From contig OZ219866.1 of assembly GCA_964291675.2 (NCBI GenBank), forward strand, positions 3,072,001 to 3,136,000: 64,000 nucleotides of DNA, given 5' to 3'. A program made the position numbers and the translations under genes. Below, in pieces: positions 45,525 through 55,647 of this stretch. This DNA is from Alphaproteobacteria bacterium (GTDB lineage Bacteria; Pseudomonadota; Alphaproteobacteria; MPNO01). Position 1 is the first letter of the stretch. Every line of letters starts with the position of its first letter. A model generated the notes under the pieces. The model searched no databases and was not told the origin of the DNA. It was given only the letters and a program-made list of their open reading frames with translations.

Positions 45525-45718
45525 GCGCGGGGGGAGAGACGGTGGAACGCGGCTTCGGGCCGGTCGGCGCCGCGCTGCGCGAGCCCGCGCTCGGCGAGCG
45601 GGCGGGCTAGGCGACAGATCGCCCGACGCGTTCCGGGCCTCCGACGGCCGCCCGGACGCATGCCGGGGGTCGATGCCGTCTCCCCGCGTCACGCCAAAAT
45701 AGTACCGTTTCGGGACAA

Positions 45719-45734
45719 TGTTTCACGTGAAACA
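45719..45734. promoter_or_regulatory. parS site (perfect consensus)
   Basis: TGTTTCACGTGAAACA, exact 16-bp palindrome. Confidence 0.85.
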
Positions 45735-45736
45735 AT

Positions 45737-45753
45737 GGTCAGCATTGCTGACC
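45737..45753. repeat. Perfect 8-1-8 inverted repeat, putative operator
   Basis: GGTCAGCA-T-TGCTGACC, 2 nt after parS. Confidence 0.6.
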
Positions 45754-45777
45754 TATCGTCAAAAGGCAAAATAGCGC

Positions 45778-45806
45778 TTGACATGGGACGCGTTTTGGGG
45801 TAGATT
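45778..45806 (+). promoter_or_regulatory. Sigma70-type promoter
   Basis: TTGACA-N17-TAGATT. Confidence 0.65.
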
Positions 45807-45824
45807 TGCCACGCTCGCGAAATG

Positions 45825-45852
45825 GGGCGCCGGAGATGCCGGCGCCCTTTCT
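45825..45852 (+). terminator. Putative intrinsic terminator
   Basis: GGGCGCCGG-AGATG-CCGGCGCCC followed by TTTCT. Confidence 0.55.
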
Positions 45853-45942
45853 CGCCGCCCGGAACTTCGCCGGGGCGCGGCGCGGGAGCCCGGCGGCGCT
45901 ACTGCGCGAAGGAACGGCCGCCCGTCGTCGTGAGTCCTCGGA

Positions 45943-48822
45943 CTATCCCGGTGCTCCGTGCGCCAGGTTGAGCGCCAGCAGCTTCGCCAGCGCGTTCTCG
46001 TCCGGGATCCCCGCATCCCAACCATAGGCCGCGGCCACGGCGGCATCGAGGGCCGCGTGGGCATCGGCGAGCCATTGCGGGCGGTCGTTGTAGAGGTTGG
46101 TCAGCGTGCGGGCCCTCAGCGCCTTCTCCGCCGCGGCGTTGCGCGGCACCGGGCGCCTCGGGTAGCCGGGAACCGGCTCGTCCACCCACCCCACCCATTC
46201 GGGCGGGTTGAGCCAGCGGTCGCGCAGCTCGACCAGCCGCCGCGCGGCCCCGGCGATGGCGACGGCGCGGGGATCGCCGGCGTAGTCGGCAGCGGGGATG
46301 TCGGGCGAGAGGCCGTCCGGGAACGGGAAGGTCTCGAAGGTGGTGGTCGGGGTGTAGCGCGGATCGTTGCCCTTGCCGAGCCACGTTCCGAGCCGGAGCG
46401 ACCACGCCTCGTGAAACCGGCTGTGCAGGATACCGAAGGTGGTGTCGTCGTCGCGGGCAATCGCGATCGCTGCACTGTCCAAGCAGACGCCGGCATCGAC
46501 CCATACGAACAGCCGGTGTTTGGAGACACGTGGCGTCGCGACAAAGCGTGGCAGACCGTCGAGCGCGCGCCACATGCCCTGTCGCGGCTCGACATGGCGC
46601 CACCAATTGACGCGGTAGGCCTCGCGGCGATTCCGTTGCCGCATCGGGTGGACGTGTTCGCGCGCGTACCGATAGGGCTCCTCGTAGAGCGCGGCCTCCG
46701 CCTCCTCCATGCGCCAGCCGAAATCGACGATCCACTTGCCGGCCGGTCTGCGGGTCAGGTCCATGCCGTTCGCCCAAGGCCTGAGCACGTCGGCGTTCGG
46801 CCGTCCGTTCGGATTGGCCGGAAGGCGCAGCCACGCCCGCGCAAGATCGCCGGGAATGTCGAACGGCCCGCCCTTGGTGTCGCCCATGAAGGCGGCCCCG
46901 ACATTCGCGGGCTGGCGCACGGCCCGCGTCAGGTCGATCCCTGCGCCGCCGCGCCTGGCCGTCAGGTCGGCGTAGATTTCGTCGACGGGCTCGCCGTCGA
47001 GCCGGACCTCGGGCGCGTGACCGTCCCCGGCGCGGGCGAAGCTCACCAGCGAGACCCGTACCGCCGCGCCGTCGATCACCCAGGGCTCGTCGCTCCAGGC
47101 GTCGAAGATCGGGTGTCCCACGGTCGCTGCCTGCAACGCCCGCCGGTTGGCACCGCCGCGGATCGAGTTGGTGGCGACCAGGCCGACCCGGTGCGCCTTG
47201 CCCGTGTCGACATGCTCCCCCGCCTTCACGAACCAGTAGCAGACCAGATCGGCTTCCGGCGGCACGCGGCGTTGGTAGGCCGCGAAGACCCGCGCAACAT
47301 AGTCCTCGCCCAGCTCACCGATCAGGAGCTTCCCGCCGAGGAAGGGCGGGTTGCCGATCACCACGTCGACCTCGGGCCAGCCGGGCTCGCTCCCGTCGGG
47401 CGCCAGGATCGCGTCGCGGCATTCGATGTTGTCGAGCGGCTTGAGGATGGGGTTGCGGGCCTCGGTGAACCCGTTGCGGCGCATCCACTGGATTTCGCCG
47501 ATCCAGACCGACACGCGGGCGAGCTCGGCGGCGTAGGCGTTGACCTCGATGCCCCGGACGTTCGCCGGGCCGGTCGCGGGAAAGCGGCGTTCAAGCCCCA
47601 AGGCCTCCGCTTCAAGCTGTACCCGGTGCTCAATGTCTTTGAGCGCGTGCAGCGCCAGATAGAGGAAGTTGCCCGAGCCGCAAGCCGGGTCGAGCACCGT
47701 GAATTCCTGCAAGCGCTTCAGGAACGCGTTCAGCAAACCTTGCGACGGGCTAATCCTCACGGGTCCTTTCCTGCGGCGTCGCGTCCTCGGCCTTGCCTTC
47801 TCCTCCTTCGCTATAGCGGCCGCGATCTCGGCCTTCGCGGTCTCCCATTCCGCCAGCAGGGGGCGGACGATCACCGGCTCGACGATCCGCATGATCTTGT
47901 CGCGGTCGGTGTAGTGCGCGCCGAGCTGGGAGCGCTTGTCGGGGTCGAGCCCGCGCTCGAACAGGGTGCCGAGGATCGACGGGTCGATCTCCGACCAGTC
48001 GAGCGCCGCCGCCCTGAGCGCCGTGTCGATCTCGTCCCGCTCCAGCGGCAGGGCGGAGTCGTCGTCGAACAGCCCGCCGTTGAACCAGGCGACCGCCTCG
48101 AACCCGATCCGCCCGCCGGACGCCATCGCCCCGAACAGGTCGCGGGCGAGGTCGGCGAATTCTCCCGGCCGCCGGCGCGCGTGTTCCAGCATCCGGGTGA
48201 ACATGTCGTCGGGCAGCAGGCCCACGTCCTCGGCGAACATGCAGAACACCAGGCGGTTCACGAAATGCGCCACCGCCTGCGGGTCGTGGCCCCGGTCGCG
48301 GAGCGATTGCGCGAGCTCGGCAAAGGTTTCCGCGGCGCGCGCGGTCACCGCCTGGCGCGTCTCGCTGGGGCGCAGCCGCTCCGGGTCGGACATCGCCCAT
48401 TTCAGCTTGTCCCGGTTGCCGGGCTCGGCGAGGCCGTCCAGCGCGAACTCGTGCGTCTCGCTCACGCTGTTGGTCCAGTTGGTGCGGATGCGAAACCGCT
48501 CCATGTCCGAGACGATCAGGAGCGGCGGGTTCTCCAGGGCCAGCGCGTATTGCCTGAGCTGGTTGAACGCCGCGTCGAGGTCGGCGAGCTTGCCCTTGTA
48601 CTCCCAGGCGAAGCGGCCCTGCCGCCAGACATCGGCCCAGCCGTCGCCGCCGGTGTCCTTGCGGGCGCCGCGCTCGAAGCAGTAGCGCTCGCCCGTGGGA
48701 TCGGCCTCCGCCGGGGTCGGCTCGCCGAGCAGCCGGCACAGGTCGATGAAGTGCTCCTGCGCCGCCGAGCTCTCCTTCAGCGCGGAGGCGCGCCACTTGG
48801 CGATGAAGTCGCCCGGCGTCAC
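45943..48822 (-). CDS. MmeI-like fused restriction endonuclease / N6-adenine methyltransferase (type IIG/IIL-like)
   Basis: GWADVW..RFAWEYK nuclease motif, FNGGLF, GAHYT, VLDPACGSGNFL, GNPPF, C-terminal TRD with RYTP...FETFPFP; GTG start 48822. Confidence 0.88.
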   Translation of the reverse strand: MTPGDFIAKWRASALKESSAAQEHFIDLCRLLGEPTPAEADPTGERYCFERGARKDTGGDGWADVWRQGRFAWEYKGKLADLDAAFNQLRQYALALENPPLLIVSDMERFRIRTNWTNSVSETHEFALDGLAEPGNRDKLKWAMSDPERLRPSETRQAVTARAAETFAELAQSLRDRGHDPQAVAHFVNRLVFCMFAEDVGLLPDDMFTRMLEHARRRPGEFADLARDLFGAMASGGRIGFEAVAWFNGGLFDDDSALPLERDEIDTALRAAALDWSEIDPSILGTLFERGLDPDKRSQLGAHYTDRDKIMRIVEPVIVRPLLAEWETAKAEIAAAIAKEEKARPRTRRRRKGPVRISPSQGLLNAFLKRLQEFTVLDPACGSGNFLYLALHALKDIEHRVQLEAEALGLERRFPATGPANVRGIEVNAYAAELARVSVWIGEIQWMRRNGFTEARNPILKPLDNIECRDAILAPDGSEPGWPEVDVVIGNPPFLGGKLLIGELGEDYVARVFAAYQRRVPPEADLVCYWFVKAGEHVDTGKAHRVGLVATNSIRGGANRRALQAATVGHPIFDAWSDEPWVIDGAAVRVSLVSFARAGDGHAPEVRLDGEPVDEIYADLTARRGGAGIDLTRAVRQPANVGAAFMGDTKGGPFDIPGDLARAWLRLPANPNGRPNADVLRPWANGMDLTRRPAGKWIVDFGWRMEEAEAALYEEPYRYAREHVHPMRQRNRREAYRVNWWRHVEPRQGMWRALDGLPRFVATPRVSKHRLFVWVDAGVCLDSAAIAIARDDDTTFGILHSRFHEAWSLRLGTWLGKGNDPRYTPTTTFETFPFPDGLSPDIPAADYAGDPRAVAIAGAARRLVELRDRWLNPPEWVGWVDEPVPGYPRRPVPRNAAAEKALRARTLTNLYNDRPQWLADAHAALDAAVAAAYGWDAGIPDENALAKLLALNLAHGAPG

Positions 48823-49049
48823 GGGCGCGTCCGACCGTCGCGGCGAGGCCGGCGATCGGTGTCCCAGGTGATGCCGGGGTTTGCATTGCTCAAGCCGAGC
48901 CCCACCGTCTCGCGCTCCTGCCGTGCCGCGTGCCGCGCAAAGGGTATAGCCGGCGCCGTGATGGCTCAAACGGCCAAGCGGGGCGGATGGCTCGTCTTTG
49001 CTGATGAAATGCTGCCCGCTCGACCGCGACGCCAGGCGGGCAGGCCTGC

Positions 49050-49391
49050 TTAGTCGAAGGCGCGGAGCAAGGTGATGCGCACCGCTACTGGCCCGAGATC
49101 CGTTGCCGCTTCGACGATCCGACTCTCGGGATCGCGGGGGAAGGAGCACCGAGCATCGAACTTGAGGCCGCCCGGCCCGGCCATATGGCCCTGGACAACC
49201 TGCACCCCTTCCGGAACCGATACGACGACTTCCATGTCGAGAAGCTGCGTTTGCTCGTTCCAGCGGTAAGTGCCGTCGTAGCGTCCGCCCGCCCAATCGG
49301 CGCCGACCACTGCGCCGGTGTCTAGCGCCAGCAGAGCGAACCCGGAATCGGCCTGCCCCGCATATTCAACCTTGTAGAACCCCTCCCGCAT
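49050..49391 (-). CDS. Small beta-rich protein, GrlR-family-like
   Basis: MREGFYKVEY...G.VVGAD..G.YDGTY resembles GrlR-family N-terminus (recall); GGAG upstream of ATG. Confidence 0.5.
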   Translation of the reverse strand: MREGFYKVEYAGQADSGFALLALDTGAVVGADWAGGRYDGTYRWNEQTQLLDMEVVVSVPEGVQVVQGHMAGPGGLKFDARCSFPRDPESRIVEAATDLGPVAVRITLLRAFD

Positions 49392-49473
49392 GGGCGCGCT
49401 TCTCCGTGAATTAGAAATGGCATTGGGCGGTGGAAGGGGCCGCGCGGCTGTTGGGTTGTCAACCAATTTCCGG

Positions 49474-49492
49474 TTGTCGAAGAACTCGACAA
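49474..49492. promoter_or_regulatory. Inverted repeat, putative operator between divergent islet genes
   Basis: TTGTCGA-AGAAC-TCGACAA; also GGTTG-T-CAACC at 49454-49464. Confidence 0.45.
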
Positions 49493-49640
49493 AAAGCTGT
49501 CGGACCGCGGTGCCGGTCGCCCTCATCGCGCCGCCTGATAGACGCGGCAAGGGCGCCTCGCCACGATGGAGGATCGGGTCGGCTCCATCGTCAGCGACCG
49601 GCCCGCTTCGCATACGTCGGAGAAAACAGAGGAGCAACGC

Positions 49641-50306
49641 ATGAAGGCCGTCCGCCTGTCGCGCAACCTTGTCGTGGCGATCGCATTGGTGGTCTCCCTC
49701 GGCGCCAACGTGACACTGTTCGTCGGTGGGGTGCTGTACAGCGTCGTCGATCAGCTCGTGGACCAGGCGTTCGACCTCGATACCCCGTGGGGAAAGCAGC
49801 GCAGGGCCGTGGCCGAGTTGAAAAAGGAAAACGACGGTCTGCGAACCGAGAACCGCAAGCTGCGGGGTCAACTCAAGAAAGTCGGCAAGGCCGCGGACCG
49901 GTCCCGGACCCGCCTGCTCAGATCGGCAAGTCGGAGCGTCGCGACGGCGCCGGCGAAGGCGCTGCCCTACGCCGGCGCCCTCGTCGTCGCCGGTCTCACT
50001 GCGATGGAAATCAGGGACCTTTGCGACGCCATGAGCGATATGGACCGCATCAAGCGGGTGGTCGATGACCCGGAATCAGAGACCGAGAGCGAGCCCGCCG
50101 TTTGCCCGGTGCCCGTGCCGTCGCGAGCGCGGCTCCTTGAGCGGATCGAAGGGTCCGCCCAGCAGGCATGGGACGAGAGCACGAAATACGTTCCCGATTT
50201 GCCCGGTTGGAACGACATTCCCGACTCATGGCGAGACGCTTTGCAGAACACCGTTCCCGGCTTCTTGCGGGACACTTGGGAACGCCTGAAACGCCTGTTG
50301 CCTTGA
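49641..50306 (+). CDS. Hypothetical membrane-anchored coiled-coil protein
   Basis: GAGGAG RBS; N-terminal TM, heptads ELKKENDGLRTENRKLR, second hydrophobic segment. Confidence 0.6.
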   Translation: MKAVRLSRNLVVAIALVVSLGANVTLFVGGVLYSVVDQLVDQAFDLDTPWGKQRRAVAELKKENDGLRTENRKLRGQLKKVGKAADRSRTRLLRSASRSVATAPAKALPYAGALVVAGLTAMEIRDLCDAMSDMDRIKRVVDDPESETESEPAVCPVPVPSRARLLERIEGSAQQAWDESTKYVPDLPGWNDIPDSWRDALQNTVPGFLRDTWERLKRLLP

Positions 50307-50465
50307 TCCGTACGCGCCCCCTTGGGCTATCTGATACCCCCCGCCCCTGTACCCCCGCAGTCGAACGGCGCCATTTTGGCAACCCTCCCCGCCGGCCTTG
50401 GTGACCCGGTGGCGACTCAGGCTCCCGCCCGAGTCACCCTATTTCCCCTAACCCCTTGAAAAGCC

Positions 50466-50541
50466 TGGTGCCGGATGAGGGATTCGAACCCCCGACCTGC
50501 TGATTACAAATCAGCCGCTCTGCCGACTGAGCTAATCCGGC
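50466..50541 (-). tRNA. tRNA-Thr(TGT)
   Basis: GCCGGATTAGCTCAG...CTGATTTGTAATCAG...GGTTCGAATCC...ATCCGGCACCA cloverleaf. Confidence 0.96.
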
Positions 50542-50641
50542 GACCCGGCGACAGATAGCGCCGTCGCGGGCTGCATTCAAGCGCCGTCGCGGCTCTGCTA
50601 GGTTGCGCGCGGAGAGTTGCACGAGGCAAGGGGGAGCAGCC

Positions 50642-51751
50642 ATGGCGATCGTCGTCCGCAAGGTAGCGATGGAGCATGTCCAGGACACCGCCGGCATCGA
50701 GGCGGCGATGGCCGACGAGGGGTTCGGCGTCGACGACATCGTCGCCCTGGTCGCCAAGACCGAGGGCAATGGCGGGGTCAACGATTTCGGCCGCATCCTG
50801 GTCGACCGGATGCTGCGCGACTTCCTGGCGCGCCAGGGCAGCGGCGGGCGCGAGGCGGCGATGCGCGTGCCCATCGCGCTGTCGGGCGGGTGTCCCGGCG
50901 TCATCTCGCCGCATATCAACGTGTTCGCCCGCGTCGACGATCCCGATCCAGACCCGGAGGCCGAACGGCTGGCCATCGGCATCGCCATGTCGGAAGCCAT
51001 CGCGCCCGAGGACATCGGCCGCCCCGCCGGGGTCGAGAAGGTCGCCGGCGGCGTCCGCCTTGCGATGCGGGACGCCGGCATCGAGGATGCGTCGGACATC
51101 CACTACGTCCAGTCCAAATCCCCCCTGCTCACCACCGAGACCATCGCCGACGCCAGGTCGCGCGGGCATAGCGTGGCCACCGAGGAGACCATGGAATCGA
51201 TGTCGATCGCCAACGCCACCGCGGCGCTCGGCATCGGCTACGCGCTCGGCGAGATCCCGATGCCGCGCGAGGACCAGATCGGCCGCGATTTCGATCTCTA
51301 CTCCTCGGTCGCGTCGTGCTCCAGCGGCAACGAGCAGGTGGAGGCGCAGATCGTCGTGGTCGGCAACCGCAAGGGCGCCGGCGGGCGGTTCCGCATCGGC
51401 CATTCGGTGATGAAGGACGCGATCGACACGGACGGCATCTACGAGGCGATCCGCAGCGCCGGGCTGCCGCTCGGCGACCGGCCGCGCCCGTCGGATCTCG
51501 GCGATGCGGTGGTCAACTGCTTCGTCAAATGCGAGACCGACCCGACCGGGCGGCTGCGCGGCAGGCGGCAGGTCTCGCTCAACGATTCCGACGTCCACCA
51601 CACGCTCACGACCAAGGCGACGGTGGGCGGGGTGGTGTCCGCCGCGCTCGGCGATCCGGCGGTGTTCGTCTCGGTCGCGGCGTTGCAGCAGGGGCCGGCC
51701 GGCGGCGGCATGGTCGCCGCCATCGTCGACATGGACAAGGCGACCGCCTAG
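50642..51751 (+). CDS. Ring-opening amidohydrolase, cyanuric acid hydrolase/barbiturase family (barbiturase-like clade)
   Basis: KTEGNGGVNDF, SGG, KSPLL, SCSSG, RIGHSVMKD, FVSV..QGP.GGG. Confidence 0.9.
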   Translation: MAIVVRKVAMEHVQDTAGIEAAMADEGFGVDDIVALVAKTEGNGGVNDFGRILVDRMLRDFLARQGSGGREAAMRVPIALSGGCPGVISPHINVFARVDDPDPDPEAERLAIGIAMSEAIAPEDIGRPAGVEKVAGGVRLAMRDAGIEDASDIHYVQSKSPLLTTETIADARSRGHSVATEETMESMSIANATAALGIGYALGEIPMPREDQIGRDFDLYSSVASCSSGNEQVEAQIVVVGNRKGAGGRFRIGHSVMKDAIDTDGIYEAIRSAGLPLGDRPRPSDLGDAVVNCFVKCETDPTGRLRGRRQVSLNDSDVHHTLTTKATVGGVVSAALGDPAVFVSVAALQQGPAGGGMVAAIVDMDKATA

Positions 51752-51760
51752 GCCGCCGCG

Positions 51761-53254
51761 ATGGCGACCGAGACGCTGCTGCGGCGCGGCCTGTTCCGCG
51801 ATTCGGTCGCCCTGATGCAGCTCGCCGCCGCGCTCGAGGCCGAGCCGGGCATCGCGCGCGCCTCGGCGGCGATGGCGAGCCCCGCCAATCTGGCCATGCT
51901 GGCGGAGAGCGGCGTCGCCCTGGACGCCGTCGAGGCCCGGGCCAACGACCTCCTGGTGGCGGTCGAGGGCGAGGACGCGGACGCGCTCGCCGCCGCGCTC
52001 GAACGGGCGGCGGCGATGCTGGACGGCGGGACCCGGCCGGATGCCGCGCCCGGCGGAGAGGCCGCCCCGGCGCGGCCGCGCAGCCTCGCCGAAGCCGTCG
52101 ACGCGGCGCCGGATGCGACGCTCGCGCTGATCTCCTGCCCCGGCGAGTACGCGGCGGCGGAGGCGATGAAGGCGCTCCGGCTCGGGCTCGACGCGATGGT
52201 GTTCTCCGACAACGTCTCGCTGGAGGACGAGGTCGCGCTCAAGCGCGAGGCGGAGCGGCGCGGCCGGCTGCTGATGGGCCCCGATTGCGGCACCGCCATC
52301 GTCGGCGGGGTGCCGCTCGGCTTCGCCAACCGGGTGCGGCAGGGCGCCATCGGCATCGTCGGCGCGTCCGGCACCGGGCTGCAGCAGGTCGCCTGCCTGG
52401 TCGACCGCCGCGGGGCCGGGATCTCGCATGCCATCGGCGCCGGCGGGCGGGACCTGTCCCGCCAGGTCGGCGGGACGACGACGCTGCGCGGCCTCGCCAT
52501 GCTGGCGGCGGACCCGGGGACCGACCGCATCGTCCTGGTCTCCAAGCCGCCCGACGAGGCGGTGATGCGCCGCCTGCTCGACGCCGCCGGCGCGGCGGGA
52601 AAGCCGGTAATCGCCTGCTTCGTCGGCGCCCGGCCGCCGGAGCTCCCGGCCAATCTGCGGTTCGCGGCGACGCTGGAGGACGCGGCGGCGCTGGCGGCCG
52701 GCACCGCCGGAGCCGCCGGCCCCGGCGCCGATCCGCCGGTGCCGCGCGCTTGCGGGCCGGGCCGGCTGGTCGGGCTGTTCTCGGGCGGTACGCTCTGCTA
52801 CGAGGCCCAGGCGGTCGCGGCGCCCCTGCTCGGGCGGATCCTGTCCAACGCGCCGCTCGATGCGCGCGATGCCTGGGACGGCGAGGCGGGCGGACACCTG
52901 ATGCTCGATCTCGGCGACGACGCCTTCACCCGCGGCCGGCCCCACCCGATGATCGACTACCGCCCGAGGCTGGTGCGAATCCGCGATGCCGCCGCCGCGC
53001 CCGGCACGGCGGCGATCCTGATCGACGTGGTTCTCGGCTGCGGCGCGCATGGCGACCCGGCGGCGGCGCTCGCGCCGGCGATCGGCGCCCTCGACGGCCC
53101 GGTCGCGGTGGGCTCGGTGTGCGGCACCGAGGCCGACCCGCAGCGCCTCTCGCGCCAGGAGGCGGCGCTCGCCGACGCCGGCATGGTGCTCGCCGCGAGC
53201 AATGCGGAGGCGGCGCGAATCGCCGCCCGAATCGCCGGCGGGGGCGGGGCGTGA
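51761..53254 (+). CDS. fdrA: FdrA/AllF family protein (SucD-like fold)
   Basis: DSVALM, FSDNV, MGPDCGTA, GASGTG, GGRDLS, GLFSGGTL, DLGDD.FT.GRPHPMID. Confidence 0.88.
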   Translation: MATETLLRRGLFRDSVALMQLAAALEAEPGIARASAAMASPANLAMLAESGVALDAVEARANDLLVAVEGEDADALAAALERAAAMLDGGTRPDAAPGGEAAPARPRSLAEAVDAAPDATLALISCPGEYAAAEAMKALRLGLDAMVFSDNVSLEDEVALKREAERRGRLLMGPDCGTAIVGGVPLGFANRVRQGAIGIVGASGTGLQQVACLVDRRGAGISHAIGAGGRDLSRQVGGTTTLRGLAMLAADPGTDRIVLVSKPPDEAVMRRLLDAAGAAGKPVIACFVGARPPELPANLRFAATLEDAAALAAGTAGAAGPGADPPVPRACGPGRLVGLFSGGTLCYEAQAVAAPLLGRILSNAPLDARDAWDGEAGGHLMLDLGDDAFTRGRPHPMIDYRPRLVRIRDAAAAPGTAAILIDVVLGCGAHGDPAAALAPAIGALDGPVAVGSVCGTEADPQRLSRQEAALADAGMVLAASNAEAARIAARIAGGGGA

Positions 53255-54675
53255 GCGCCGCCGGTCCGACCGGCCCCCGGGTGCTCAATCTCGGCATCGC
53301 CGCGTTCGGCGAAGCGATCCGGGAGGCCGGCGGCAGCGCCGTCGACATCGACTGGCGCCCGCCGGCGGACGGATCGCGCGATGCCGGGCTCGCGCTCGCC
53401 GCGACCGTCAACCATCCCCGCGTCGAGGCCGCCAACCGCCTCGCCTTCGACCGCTTCCTCGCCGCCGAGCCCGCCGCGACCGGGATCGCGCCGGCGCTGG
53501 CGGCGCTGCCCGGAATGGGCGAACGGACGATCCTGCATGCCGGCCCGCCGGTGGAATGGGAGGCGATGTGCGGGCCGATGCGGGGCGCGGTGCTGGGCGC
53601 GATCCTGTTCGAGGGCTGGGCCGCGGATCTCGACGCCGCGCGCGATCTCGCCGATTCGGGCGGGGTGGAATTCGATTCCTGCCACCGCCACGCCGCCGTC
53701 GGGCCGATGTCCGGCGTGACCTCGCCGTCGATGCCGGTGTGGGCGGTCGAGAACGCGCCGGCCGGCAATGTCGCCTTCTGCAGCCTCAACGAGGGGCTGG
53801 GCAAGGTGCTTCGCTTCGGCGCCAACGGCCCGGAGGTGATCGAGCGGCTGCGCTGGATGCAGGGGGAGCTCGCGGACGTGCTGGCGCGCACGCTGGAGGC
53901 GCACGGGCCGGTCGAGCTCAAGCCGCTGATCGCCCAGGCGCTGCACATGGGCGACGAGGCGCACAACCGCAACGCGGCGGCGACCTCGCTGCTGGTCAAG
54001 CGGCTGGTCGCGCCGGCGCTCGCCTGCGGCGCCGATCCCGCGGCGGTCGCCCGGGTCTTCGCCTTCATCGCCGGCAACGACCATTTCTTCCTCAACCTCT
54101 CGATGGCCGCCTGCAAGGCGATGCTCGATGCCGCGCGCGGCGTGGACTACGCCTCGATGGTCACCGCGATGGCGCGCAACGGGGTCGAGTTCGGCATCCA
54201 GACGAGCGCCACCGGGGACCGCTGGTTCACCGCCCCCGCGCCGGTCGTCGACGGGCTCTACTTCTCCGGCTTCGGCCGCGAGCACGGCGCGCGCGACATC
54301 GGCGACAGCGCGATCACCGAGACCGCCGGGCTCGGCGGGTTCGCGATGGCGGCGGCGCCGGCGATCGTCCGCTTCGTCGGCGGCAGCGCAAGCGAGGCGA
54401 TCGCCGCCAGCCGCCGGATGCGCGCCATCGCGCTCGGCGCGAACCCCGCCTTCACCCTGCCCGTCCTCGACTTCGCCGCGGCGCCGGCCGGGATCGACGC
54501 GCGTCGGGTCGTCGACAGCGGGGTTCAGCCGATCGTCAATACCGGGATCGCCCACCGCGAGGCCGGGATCGGCCAGATCGGCGCCGGCATCACCGCCGCG
54601 CCGATGGATTGCTTCGTCCAGGCGGTGCGGGCGCTGCACGGCGCGCTCGCCGGAGCCGGGGACCGCGCCGGCTGA
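53251..54675 (+). CDS. DUF1116 (YlbE/AllG/YahG-like) protein
   Basis: DWRPPA, ILHAGPP, NEGLGKVLRFG, MGDE.HNRN, NDHFFLN, ARNG.EFG, DIGDSAITE, NTGIAH; GTGA coupling. Confidence 0.88.
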   Translation: MSAAGPTGPRVLNLGIAAFGEAIREAGGSAVDIDWRPPADGSRDAGLALAATVNHPRVEAANRLAFDRFLAAEPAATGIAPALAALPGMGERTILHAGPPVEWEAMCGPMRGAVLGAILFEGWAADLDAARDLADSGGVEFDSCHRHAAVGPMSGVTSPSMPVWAVENAPAGNVAFCSLNEGLGKVLRFGANGPEVIERLRWMQGELADVLARTLEAHGPVELKPLIAQALHMGDEAHNRNAAATSLLVKRLVAPALACGADPAAVARVFAFIAGNDHFFLNLSMAACKAMLDAARGVDYASMVTAMARNGVEFGIQTSATGDRWFTAPAPVVDGLYFSGFGREHGARDIGDSAITETAGLGGFAMAAAPAIVRFVGGSASEAIAASRRMRAIALGANPAFTLPVLDFAAAPAGIDARRVVDSGVQPIVNTGIAHREAGIGQIGAGITAAPMDCFVQAVRALHGALAGAGDRAG

Positions 54676-54680
54676 CCCGG

Positions 54681-55424
54681 CTACGCCGCCTGCGCGTGGG
54701 CGTAGAGCGCGATGGCGGCGGCGGCCGAGACGTTGAGGCTCGCCGCGCCCCCGGCCATCGGGATGCGCAGCAGGAGATCGCAGCGCTCGGCCGTCAGCCG
54801 GCGCAGCCCGCGCCCCTCGGCGCCGAGCACGAGCGCGCAGCGGTCGGGCAGCCCGCCCGGCGCCAGCTCGGTCCCGGCGCCGGCGTCGAAGCCGACGCAC
54901 CAGAGCCCGCCCGCCTTCAGCCGGCCGAGCGCGCGGGCGAGGTTGGCGACCCGGATCACCGGCACCGATTCGAGCGCGCCCGAGGCCGCCTTGGCGAGCG
55001 CCCCGGTCTCCGGCGGGGCGTGGCGGTCGGGCATCACCAGGGCGAGCGCGCCGAGCGCGGCGGCGCTCCTGAGCACCGCGCCCACGTTCTGCGGGTCCTG
55101 CACCCGGTCGAGCACGATGGCCGCCGCGCGCCCGCGCGAGCGCGCGGCATCGAGAACCGATTCGAGACCGCCCTGGGCGAGCGGTTCGGCGAGCAGGGCG
55201 AGCCCCTGGTGGACGGCGCCCTCGGGCAGGATCCGGCGCAGCGCGTCGCGGTCGACGATCTCCGGCCCGTGCGCGGCGAGGGCCTCGCCCGCATCGCGCT
55301 CGGCGAGCAGGCGGAGCCGCCGCCGCGCGGGGTTGGCGAGCGCCGCGGCGACCGCGTGCCGGCCGTAGAGCCAGACCGTGCCGCGCCGCGCCCGGCCGGC
55401 GCGCATGCCCTTGTTTCGAGTCAT
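54681..55424 (-). CDS. rlmB: 23S rRNA G2251 methyltransferase RlmB (TrmH/SpoU family)
   Basis: [35 protein letters not shown]. Confidence 0.92.
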
Positions 55425-55523
55425 GGGAGGGACTATAATGCGCGCCGACATTGTTCTAACAACTGATCCTGCATGGCGCGCCTCCCATGGTCCGGGACGG
55501 GCGCTTTCGCACTTTTCCTGTCG

Positions 55524-55552
55524 TTGACAGGAGGATGCAAATCGCCTACTTC
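55524..55552 (+). promoter_or_regulatory. Sigma70-type promoter of tRNA-Tyr/Gly-tuf operon
   Basis: TTGACA-N17-TACTTC just upstream of tRNA-Tyr. Confidence 0.55.
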
Positions 55553-55561
55553 GGCGGTCTC

Positions 55562-55647
55562 GGAGGGGTGCCCGAGTGGCTAAAGGGGACGGGCTGTAAA
55601 CCCGTTGGCGTTTGCCTACGTTGGTTCGAATCCAACCCCCTCCACCA
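55562..55647 (+). tRNA. tRNA-Tyr(GTA)
   Basis: GGAGGGG acceptor, CTGTAAA loop, long variable arm, TTCGAAT, CCA end. Confidence 0.96.

Follow-up and report, generated by a model that had tools for sequence, protein, structure and literature searches.

A barbiturase-type hydrolase encoded with FdrA and AllG homologues: a candidate operon for conserving the ureido group of cyclic ureides as carbamoyl phosphate

What is gained by placing a barbiturase-type hydrolase in one operon with homologues of two carbamoyltransferase subunits? This question is raised by three genes of a wastewater alphaproteobacterium, the genome of which measures 4.8 Mb with a GC content of ~69-70%. The genes lie in the window analysed here, i.e., the whole 64,000-nucleotide stretch G000:C2:3072001-3136000 (contig C2, forward strand), and the records of the nearest loci carry the names Defluviicoccus and related alphaproteobacteria. 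The operon occupies positions 50642-54675 of the window and encodes, in one direction, a ring-opening amidohydrolase of the AtzD/TrzD/barbiturase family, an FdrA/AllF homologue and a DUF1116/AllG homologue, hereafter the triad. We regard it as an evenly balanced prospect that the triad carries out the two-step breakdown of a six-membered cyclic ureide, during which the ureido group is saved as carbamoyl phosphate. Barbiturate or a close analogue appears to be the likeliest substrate of the hydrolase, judging from its sequence.

We infer the chemical steps from the family assignments and gene contexts documented below. In the first step, the hydrolase would hydrolytically open the ring of barbiturate, or of a close analogue derived from an oxidised pyrimidine, to yield an N-carbamoyl amide, which would be ureidomalonate if the substrate is barbiturate. 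In the second step, FdrA/AllF and DUF1116/AllG would act as does the Escherichia coli oxamate carbamoyltransferase when it works catabolically, cleaving the carbamoyl-amide bond with phosphate and releasing carbamoyl phosphate together with an amide (malonamate). Ureidomalonate would be a one-carbon homologue of oxalurate, on which the E. coli enzyme acts, and both enzymes would release carbamoyl phosphate by phosphorolysing an N-carbamoyl amide. The third subunit, AllH, would be supplied from another contig of the genome (C1), a two-subunit enzyme being the less likely alternative. Carbamoyl phosphate could then be converted to ATP, NH3 and CO2 through a carbamate-kinase-like gene of C1, or feed arginine or pyrimidine synthesis. 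Ring opening followed by phosphorolysis had been put forward in the initial annotation of this locus; the core of that idea gains from the recurrence of the gene pairing with carbamate kinase and molybdenum hydroxylases, whereas two of its parts, a parabanate substrate and a two-subunit transferase, are weakened.

Gene 1, the 369-aa hydrolase (PF09663), runs from ATG at 50642 to TAG at 51751 on the forward strand, as do its partners, and is followed by a 9-nt spacer (gccgccgcg). Gene 2, the 497-aa FdrA/AllF homologue (NF004760), extends from ATG at 51761 to TGA at 53254, and its stop codon overlaps by 4 nt (GTGA) the GTG start at 53251 of gene 3, the 474-aa DUF1116/AllG homologue (PF06545), which ends with TGA at 54675. 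Because of the 9-nt gap and the 4-nt overlap, the three genes are read as one operon. Upstream lies a 100-nt intergenic region (50542-50641, forward strand), in which the promoter is presumed to lie and which contains a Shine-Dalgarno-like GGGGGAG at 50630-50636. A sigma-70 consensus scan of positions 50300-55600 returned no promoter site, a scan that says little at ~70% GC, and the sole terminator-like match in the same interval falls within a tRNA gene. The GC content at third codon positions of genes 1 and 2 (0.93-0.94) is usual for genuine genes of this genome. Profile searches found no AllH/DUF2877 or carbamate kinase gene within or adjoining the operon. The initial annotation had reported this absence as well as the layout (co-directional genes, 9-nt gap, GTGA overlap, tRNA-Thr and rlmB flanks), and both are borne out.

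Gene 1 matches PF09663 over the full length of the profile (413.6 bits, protein residues 5-363, profile positions 2-358 of 358) and TIGR02714 with 411.7 bits (cut-off 153.1). Its best match among solved structures is the Rhodococcus barbiturase 5HWE, with 395 bits over residues 2-364, a margin of 126 bits over the cyanuric acid hydrolases, none of which exceeds 269 bits. Given this 395-bit similarity, the protein would adopt the three-domain Toblerone fold. In a ten-row alignment (A1), it keeps all three Ser-Lys dyads, K39/S81, K159/S227 and K296/S344, together with the conserved Glu (E231) that follows the central Ser S227 at a distance of four residues, as well as R51, R309 and the QGPxGGG metal loop, of which Q350, P352 and G354-356 are invariant across the alignment. 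The roles of these residues in the family are taken from PMC4051656 and PMC6557486. Altogether, the sequence is that of an intact hydrolase.

The third active-site Arg of the cyanuric acid hydrolases, located in domain B, bears on the substrate. This Arg is common to all five cyanuric-acid-hydrolase-type rows of A1 and replaced by Asn in all five barbiturase-side rows, including gene 1 (Asn191), so that of the three Arg expected in a cyanuric acid hydrolase only R51 and R309 are present. According to PMC4051656, the domain-B Arg is conserved in most cyanuric acid hydrolase subgroups and is a Gln in the barbiturase subgroup; the register of that paper may differ from that of A1, in which the residue is Asn. 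Phylogeny agrees with the residue pattern. Both a quick IQ-TREE tree (56 rows, one short row dropped, SH-aLRT support only) and a FastTree tree (96 rows) place gene 1 inside a barbiturase-side clade with 100% support, the other side of that branch holding AtzD from a Pseudomonas plasmid and from Rhizobium as well as Moorella-like proteins. Within the clade, the Defluviicoccus-like hydrolases are sister to an Acidimicrobiales group (99% support), in a subclade separate from the Nonomuraea protein that is the closest proxy of true barbiturase. The assignment of gene 1 to the barbiturase clade in the initial annotation is thereby supported by phylogeny and by structural matches alike.

Database names are a poor guide here. 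Those of close relatives alternate between 'cyanuric acid amidohydrolase' and 'barbiturase', and the NCBIfam equivalog model for cyanuric acid amidohydrolase, NF052395, scores gene 1 at 397.9 bits (cut-off 360). These mixed names and this score make automatic names for the gene 1 branch unreliable; given the missing domain-B Arg and the tree position, we regard the score as an over-reach of the model, and the labelling of the whole branch as cyanuric acid hydrolase by annotation pipelines is probably wrong.

Compared with the Rhodococcus erythropolis barbiturase (Bar, EC 3.5.2.1; PDB 5HWE, 5HXU, 5HXZ and 5HY1), gene 1 shares the PF09663 domain, the length, the motifs SCSSG and VSV-A, and the Asn that replaces the domain-B Arg. 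It differs in having GGCPGV for GGTDGV, ANATAA for SNGGTA, and Gln (ALQQGP) in place of His in the metal loop, and its subclade, which includes the Acidimicrobiales proteins, stands apart from the Rhodococcus enzyme. The downstream partners differ as well: in Rhodococcus, the barbiturase product is reportedly hydrolysed by ureidomalonase to urea and malonate, whereas the window encodes FdrA and AllG. A similar comparison can be drawn with the cyanuric acid hydrolases AtzD/TrzD of the atzDGEHF pathway (Pseudomonas sp. ADP type), which belong to the same fold family. Gene 1 is 40-42% identical to AtzD and lacks the domain-B Arg. In both systems, the enzyme next to the ring opener would handle an unstable ureido product, yet downstream of AtzD these enzymes are hydrolases (AtzEG, AtzH and AtzF), in place of which the window has FdrA/AllG.

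The genome also encodes a second, very divergent PF09663 protein at C2:2480510-2481598 (L009:10511-11599, reverse strand), 32% identical to gene 1 and matching any solved family member with at most 150 bits. Its operon partners are an amidase, a PF17645 protein of the arylmalonate decarboxylase/racemase family, an alpha/beta hydrolase and a peptide-type ABC importer, and this operon may represent another uncharacterised cyclic-amide pathway.

The partners of the hydrolase are recognisable members of the E. coli carbamoyltransferase families. FdrA (AllF), YlbE (AllG) and YlbF (AllH) constitute the E. coli oxamate carbamoyltransferase (Kim & Kim 2024, PMC11326118); in that paper, AllFGH is described as purified as an oxalurate/oxamate carbamoyltransferase, its genes sharing an operon with the carbamate kinase gene allK. 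Gene 2 matches the NCBIfam FdrA model NF004760 with 451.9 bits (cut-off 433; profile positions 4-492 of 555), carries the PF00549 and PF02629 domains (Ligase_CoA and CoA_binding) and, over residues 6-489, shares 42% identity with E. coli FdrA. Gene 3 matches PF06545 (AllG) with 310 bits over residues 139-353 and is 48% identical to YlbE over residues 58-462. The two are thus collinear with AllF and AllG of E. coli, apart from a displacement of the boundary between them by ~55 residues. Gene 2 is a short FdrA that stops near E. coli residue 490 and lacks the last ~55 residues, and gene 3 is a long AllG, residues 11-43 of which (53281-53379) align to E. coli FdrA 513-545 (E 0.003); a single tblastn alignment of gene 3 residues 11-462 spans the 3' end of E. 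coli fdrA and all of ylbE. On C1, the module found at the gene 3 N-terminus is a separate 90-aa open reading frame (ORF) upstream of an AllG paralogue, 45% identical to E. coli FdrA 511-554 (E 2e-10). Because this ~45-residue module moves between the FdrA C-terminus, the AllG N-terminus and a separate ORF, its mobility suggests an interface element.

The history of the pair was approached with a quick AllG tree of 19 rows. The triad AllG groups with plasmid-borne AllGs (support 99), to which it is 58-59% identical, whereas E. coli YlbE is the partner of the C1 paralogue (98). Hence the triad pair represents a lineage of its own and no recent copy of the canonical enzyme, which also weakens the parabanate to oxalurate option of the initial annotation. 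The window further differs from E. coli in that its FdrA/AllG pair is coupled to a ring-opening hydrolase, while the E. coli set is associated with allantoin genes, and in that its operon carries neither AllH nor AllK, unlike the allFGHK operon.

Where, then, could the third subunit come from? A search of the genome for DUF2877 and carbamate kinase, called for at the outset, returned one of each, both on C1 beside paralogous FdrA and AllG genes. This set (L007, C1:1113331-1118173) comprises, on the forward strand, the carbamate-kinase-like gene (C1:1113331-1114257), which is the only copy and scores 345.3 bits, below the cut-off of 358.25, and directly downstream of it the single AllH (PF11392, C1:1114229-1115239). 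Convergent with these, on the reverse strand, lie the 90-aa ORF and the second AllG and FdrA, which are 55% and 49% identical, respectively, to the triad proteins. A canonical-type set on C1 and the separate triad pair thus coexist in the genome. Two phage-type integrase genes are found ~2 kb from the C1 set. The same organisation is seen in four of four related genomes: the sole AllH is ~2 kb from a second AllG and away from the triad, and AllG is present in three copies. The third AllG of our genome (C2:2836003-2837307, L008) lies alone between a Rieske/VanA-type oxygenase gene and an enoyl-CoA hydratase gene, and no FdrA or AllH was found beside it; DUF1116 evidently serves more contexts than the E. 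coli enzyme. XDH-family genes lie ~9 kb from this third copy.

The AllH protein itself gives little guidance as to its partner. Over ~110 residues, it is 28-33% identical to AllH of E. coli, of the Citrobacter plasmid and of pAPEC alike, and reverse searches gave no matches, so divergent is it that it can be assigned to neither FdrA/AllG pair. However, AllH is encoded in cis in all 10 other operons tested (nine metagenome loci and one plasmid). Since E. coli needs three genes and these operons all carry AllH, the triad most likely obtains its AllH in trans from the single C1 gene. The two-subunit transferase considered in the initial annotation loses ground on the same evidence, i.e., the AllH and carbamate-kinase-like genes of C1 and the presence of AllH in the other operons. 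That the triad constitutes an AllH-independent, two-subunit carbamoyltransferase dedicated to what the hydrolase releases, ureidomalonate or a close analogue, seems doubtful to us. If true, the triad would provide a branch of oxidative pyrimidine or N-heterocycle degradation in which no urea is formed and one ATP or carbamoyl group is gained per ring, with the carbamoyltransferase replacing the hydrolytic ureidomalonase step of Rhodococcus. Either way, the version found in the window, without AllH in cis, offers a natural test of AllH necessity.

The arrangement is conserved in relatives. Among 51 loci with relatives of gene 1, hydrolase, FdrA and AllG occur together in all 15 with a hydrolase at least 80% identical (Defluviicoccus-like genomes), an arrangement that is therefore no chance juxtaposition; the initial annotation had made its proposal depend on such conservation, which held. 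The triad is syntenic in these relatives with the gcv operon, tRNA-Thr, rlmB and tuf, which indicates vertical inheritance and no recent island. In one of them (L012:13428-16346), the triad AllG is split by a 2.9-kb insertion encoding an IS66-family transposase. Beyond this group, no FdrA/AllG was found in the Acidimicrobiales, Xanthobacteraceae and Micropepsaceae loci or L024 of the same survey, nor at eight proteobacterial loci with cyanurate-hydrolase-like genes (0/8). The neighbours of the Acidimicrobiales hydrolases are XDH-type enzymes, Rieske oxygenase, CN-hydrolase and an ABC importer.

The pairing of a PF09663 hydrolase with FdrA/AllG nevertheless recurs in at least four architectures, in Pseudomonadota, plasmids, an archaeal contig and metagenomes. 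A Bathyarchaeota contig (L050) has the order FdrA-AllG-PF09663, with a hydrolase of cyanurate type (500 bits to the Moorella cyanuric acid hydrolase 6BUM). A Citrobacter freundii plasmid (L068, NZ_CP046505.1, 48971-57900) carries, in order, genes for a hypothetical protein, a PF09663 hydrolase (582 bits to 6BUM), an NCS2 nucleobase permease, DUF2877, FdrA, a 473-aa long-form DUF1116 and carbamate kinase, together with a LysR regulator. The same hydrolase, 42.3% identical to gene 1, is present in all 12 other plasmid records listed (Citrobacter, Klebsiella, Enterobacter, Raoultella and Leclercia), the operon structure having been inspected in the C. freundii record. A related module without the hydrolase occurs on ColV-type E. 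coli plasmids such as pAPEC-O2-ColV (L069, NC_007675.1), where AllH, FdrA, DUF1116 and carbamate kinase accompany a cytosine permease; its FdrA appears as two tblastn pieces and is possibly frameshifted.

Metagenomes extend the picture on the barbiturase side. The survey covered the best 80 of at least 559 confirmed candidates, all of them barbiturase-side, and 38 of the 80 loci are shorter than 6 kb, so neighbour counts are minima. FdrA and/or AllG adjoin the hydrolase in at least 12 of the 80 and carbamate kinase does so in at least eight further loci; wherever tested (9/9), AllH occupies the place between hydrolase and FdrA. In L081, L088, L093, L143 and L150, AllG is followed by subunits of an XDH-family hydroxylase (FAD, 2Fe-2S and/or molybdenum), and the L088 operon hydrolase reaches 507 bits to 5HWE. 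Several loci also include genes for carboxyltransferase and CoA-transferase III. In the FastTree tree, the loci with FdrA/AllG or carbamate kinase neighbours belong to subclades among whose members is the closest proxy of true barbiturase. Neither FdrA/AllG nor carbamate kinase lies near the hydrolases of the largest barbiturase-side clade (48 rows). Amidase-type matches occur in 17-18 of the 80 loci, and an amidase adjoins the hydrolase in L040 and L044, both members of the 48-row clade. Like the window, the Bar-AllH-FdrA-AllG-XDH operons of metagenomes and the enterobacterial plasmid operons combine PF09663 with a short FdrA and a long AllG; in contrast to the window, those tested have AllH in cis and often carbamate kinase, permease or molybdenum hydroxylase genes. 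The pairing thus recurs in unrelated lineages, often with carbamate kinase and molybdenum hydroxylases. Elsewhere, the recurring genes encode a permease of nucleobase type or a molybdenum hydroxylase, a ring opener, the subunits AllH, FdrA and AllG, and carbamate kinase. The simplest explanation would be a route in which a pyrimidine is oxidised to barbiturate, opened to ureidomalonate and converted to carbamoyl phosphate plus malonamate, and finally ATP.

A number of observations weigh against assigning this route to the triad. Its operon has no transporter, oxidising enzyme, AllH or carbamate kinase, and according to PMC11326118, E. coli activity requires all three genes allF, allG and allH. 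The nearest relatives in our genome of the molybdenum hydroxylases of the metagenome operons are only 35-37% identical. The Acidimicrobiales sister group has FdrA/AllG in none of 17 loci. The gene 1 subclade is divergent, with 395 bits to 5HWE, compared with 448 for L034, 493 for L040, 507 for L088 and 570 for the Nonomuraea protein. To these must be added the above-cut-off score of NF052395 and the pairing of FdrA/AllG with cyanurate-hydrolase-type enzymes as well, owing to which the pairing alone does not identify barbiturate.

These points feed several rival explanations. The same logic could apply to another ring, cyanuric acid or a triazine-like or other N-heterocycle, with FdrA/AllG phosphorolysing 1-carboxybiuret or biuret to carbamoyl phosphate and allophanate or urea. 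Besides the NF052395 score, the Citrobacter plasmid, in which a 6BUM relative sits with AllH-FdrA-AllG and carbamate kinase, and the Bathyarchaeota contig lend themselves to this explanation, as does the placement of the triad AllG nearest the plasmid AllGs; in PMC12625717, allFGHK genes are moreover located beside biuret/triuret genes in Nitrospira metagenome-assembled genomes (MAGs). It is nonetheless unlikely in view of gene 1 itself, whose nearest solved structure is barbiturase by 126 bits, whose domain-B position is Asn191 and which sits within the fully supported barbiturase-side clade. A smaller ring is very improbable: parabanate would be opened to oxalurate and FdrA/AllG would be a plain oxamate carbamoyltransferase, as their 42% and 48% identity to the E. 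coli subunits might suggest. The genome already has a canonical-type set on C1 (carbamate kinase, AllH, AllG and FdrA), and it is the C1 AllG, not that of the triad, that groups with YlbE; also, no characterised PF09663 enzyme is known to act on other than six-membered rings (PMC4051656).

Other explanations dispense with phosphorolysis. FdrA has CoA_binding and Ligase_CoA domains of the succinyl-CoA synthetase alpha type, and NCBIfam calls it 'acyl-CoA synthetase FdrA'; the pair could hence resemble a nucleoside-diphosphate-forming acyl-CoA synthetase and convert the ring-opened acid, or malonamate or malonate, to a CoA thioester. CoA-transferase III or carboxyltransferase genes adjoin barbiturase-side hydrolases in L024, L128, L133, L143 and L150, and the lone third AllG adjoins an enoyl-CoA hydratase gene. 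We hold this to be quite unlikely, given that the sole family member with a tested activity is a carbamoyltransferase (PMC11326118) and that carbamate kinase, for which CoA chemistry has no use, adjoins the plasmid module as well as the hydrolase in at least eight of the 80 metagenome loci. Finally, the neighbours might share no chemistry at all, the hydrolase relying on an unlinked ureidomalonase or amidase and FdrA/AllG belonging to another pathway. The many amidases of the genome, the amidase-type matches in 17-18 of the 80 metagenome loci, including the adjoining amidases of L040 and L044, and the 48-row clade without FdrA/AllG or carbamate kinase would fit such a situation. The translational coupling of the genes (9-nt gap, 4-nt overlap) and the recurrence of the pairing in at least four architectures make it highly improbable.

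The oxidative (barbiturate) route of pyrimidine degradation is known biochemically from a few actinomycetes only, in which urea and malonate are its final products, formed by hydrolysis. From the gene contexts, it would seem that numerous bacteria, some enterobacterial plasmids and at least one archaeon instead pass a ring-opened ureide to an AllF/AllG-type carbamoyltransferase. If phosphorolysis of the ring-opened ureide is correct, the AllFGH enzyme family would gain a second, possibly a third, substrate, an energy- and nitrogen-saving branch would be added to nucleobase and triazine catabolism, and the common 'cyanuric acid amidohydrolase' labels on such hydrolases would need correction. 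The window contributes an AllH-less Defluviicoccus version, an AllG lineage apart from the canonical paralogue of the same genome, and a link to the plasmid modules.

The pathway had been presented as not already characterised, and a full-text literature search indeed found no description of a pathway combining a PF09663 hydrolase with FdrA/AllG, although a remark in cyanuric-acid-hydrolase papers or supplements is possible. The only paper found to name these elements together is the Nitrospira MAG study PMC12625717, in which allFGHK, next to biuret/triuret genes, is read as serving oxalurate degradation and no atzD is reported to have been found.

Candidates for an enzyme producing the substrate were also sought. 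A gene for a 54% identical relative of the Acidimicrobiales hydroxylase is located beyond the window, ~53 kb upstream of the triad, with which it is not linked. A CN-hydrolase gene at C2:2145751-2146779 (L070:9734-10798) encodes a protein 74% identical to the one beside an Acidimicrobiales barbiturase-like gene (L026), an identity across phyla that hints at gene transfer. It lies in an unrelated, aromatic-type cluster with genes for a luciferase-like monooxygenase, alpha/beta hydrolases, an Amidohydro_2 protein and a LigB-type dioxygenase.

The operon is bounded on the left by a divergent tRNA-Thr gene (anticodon TGT, 50466-50541, reverse strand, predicted by ARAGORN), the neighbour with which the triad is syntenic in relatives. 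On the right, a convergent SpoU/rlmB-type rRNA methylase gene (54681-55466, reverse strand; PF00588 and PF08032) lies outside the operon, its stop codon separated by 5 nt from that of gene 3. Further left, the stretch 45571-50465 measures 4.9 kb, compared with ~860 bp in the closest relatives (L010, L011 and L020), with which both of its flanks share 87-96% nucleotide identity. It contains an MmeI-family restriction-modification gene (45943-49296, reverse strand) and a lower-GC tail (~65%) with ORFs lacking a Pfam match, and looks like a strain-specific insertion beside tRNA-Thr.

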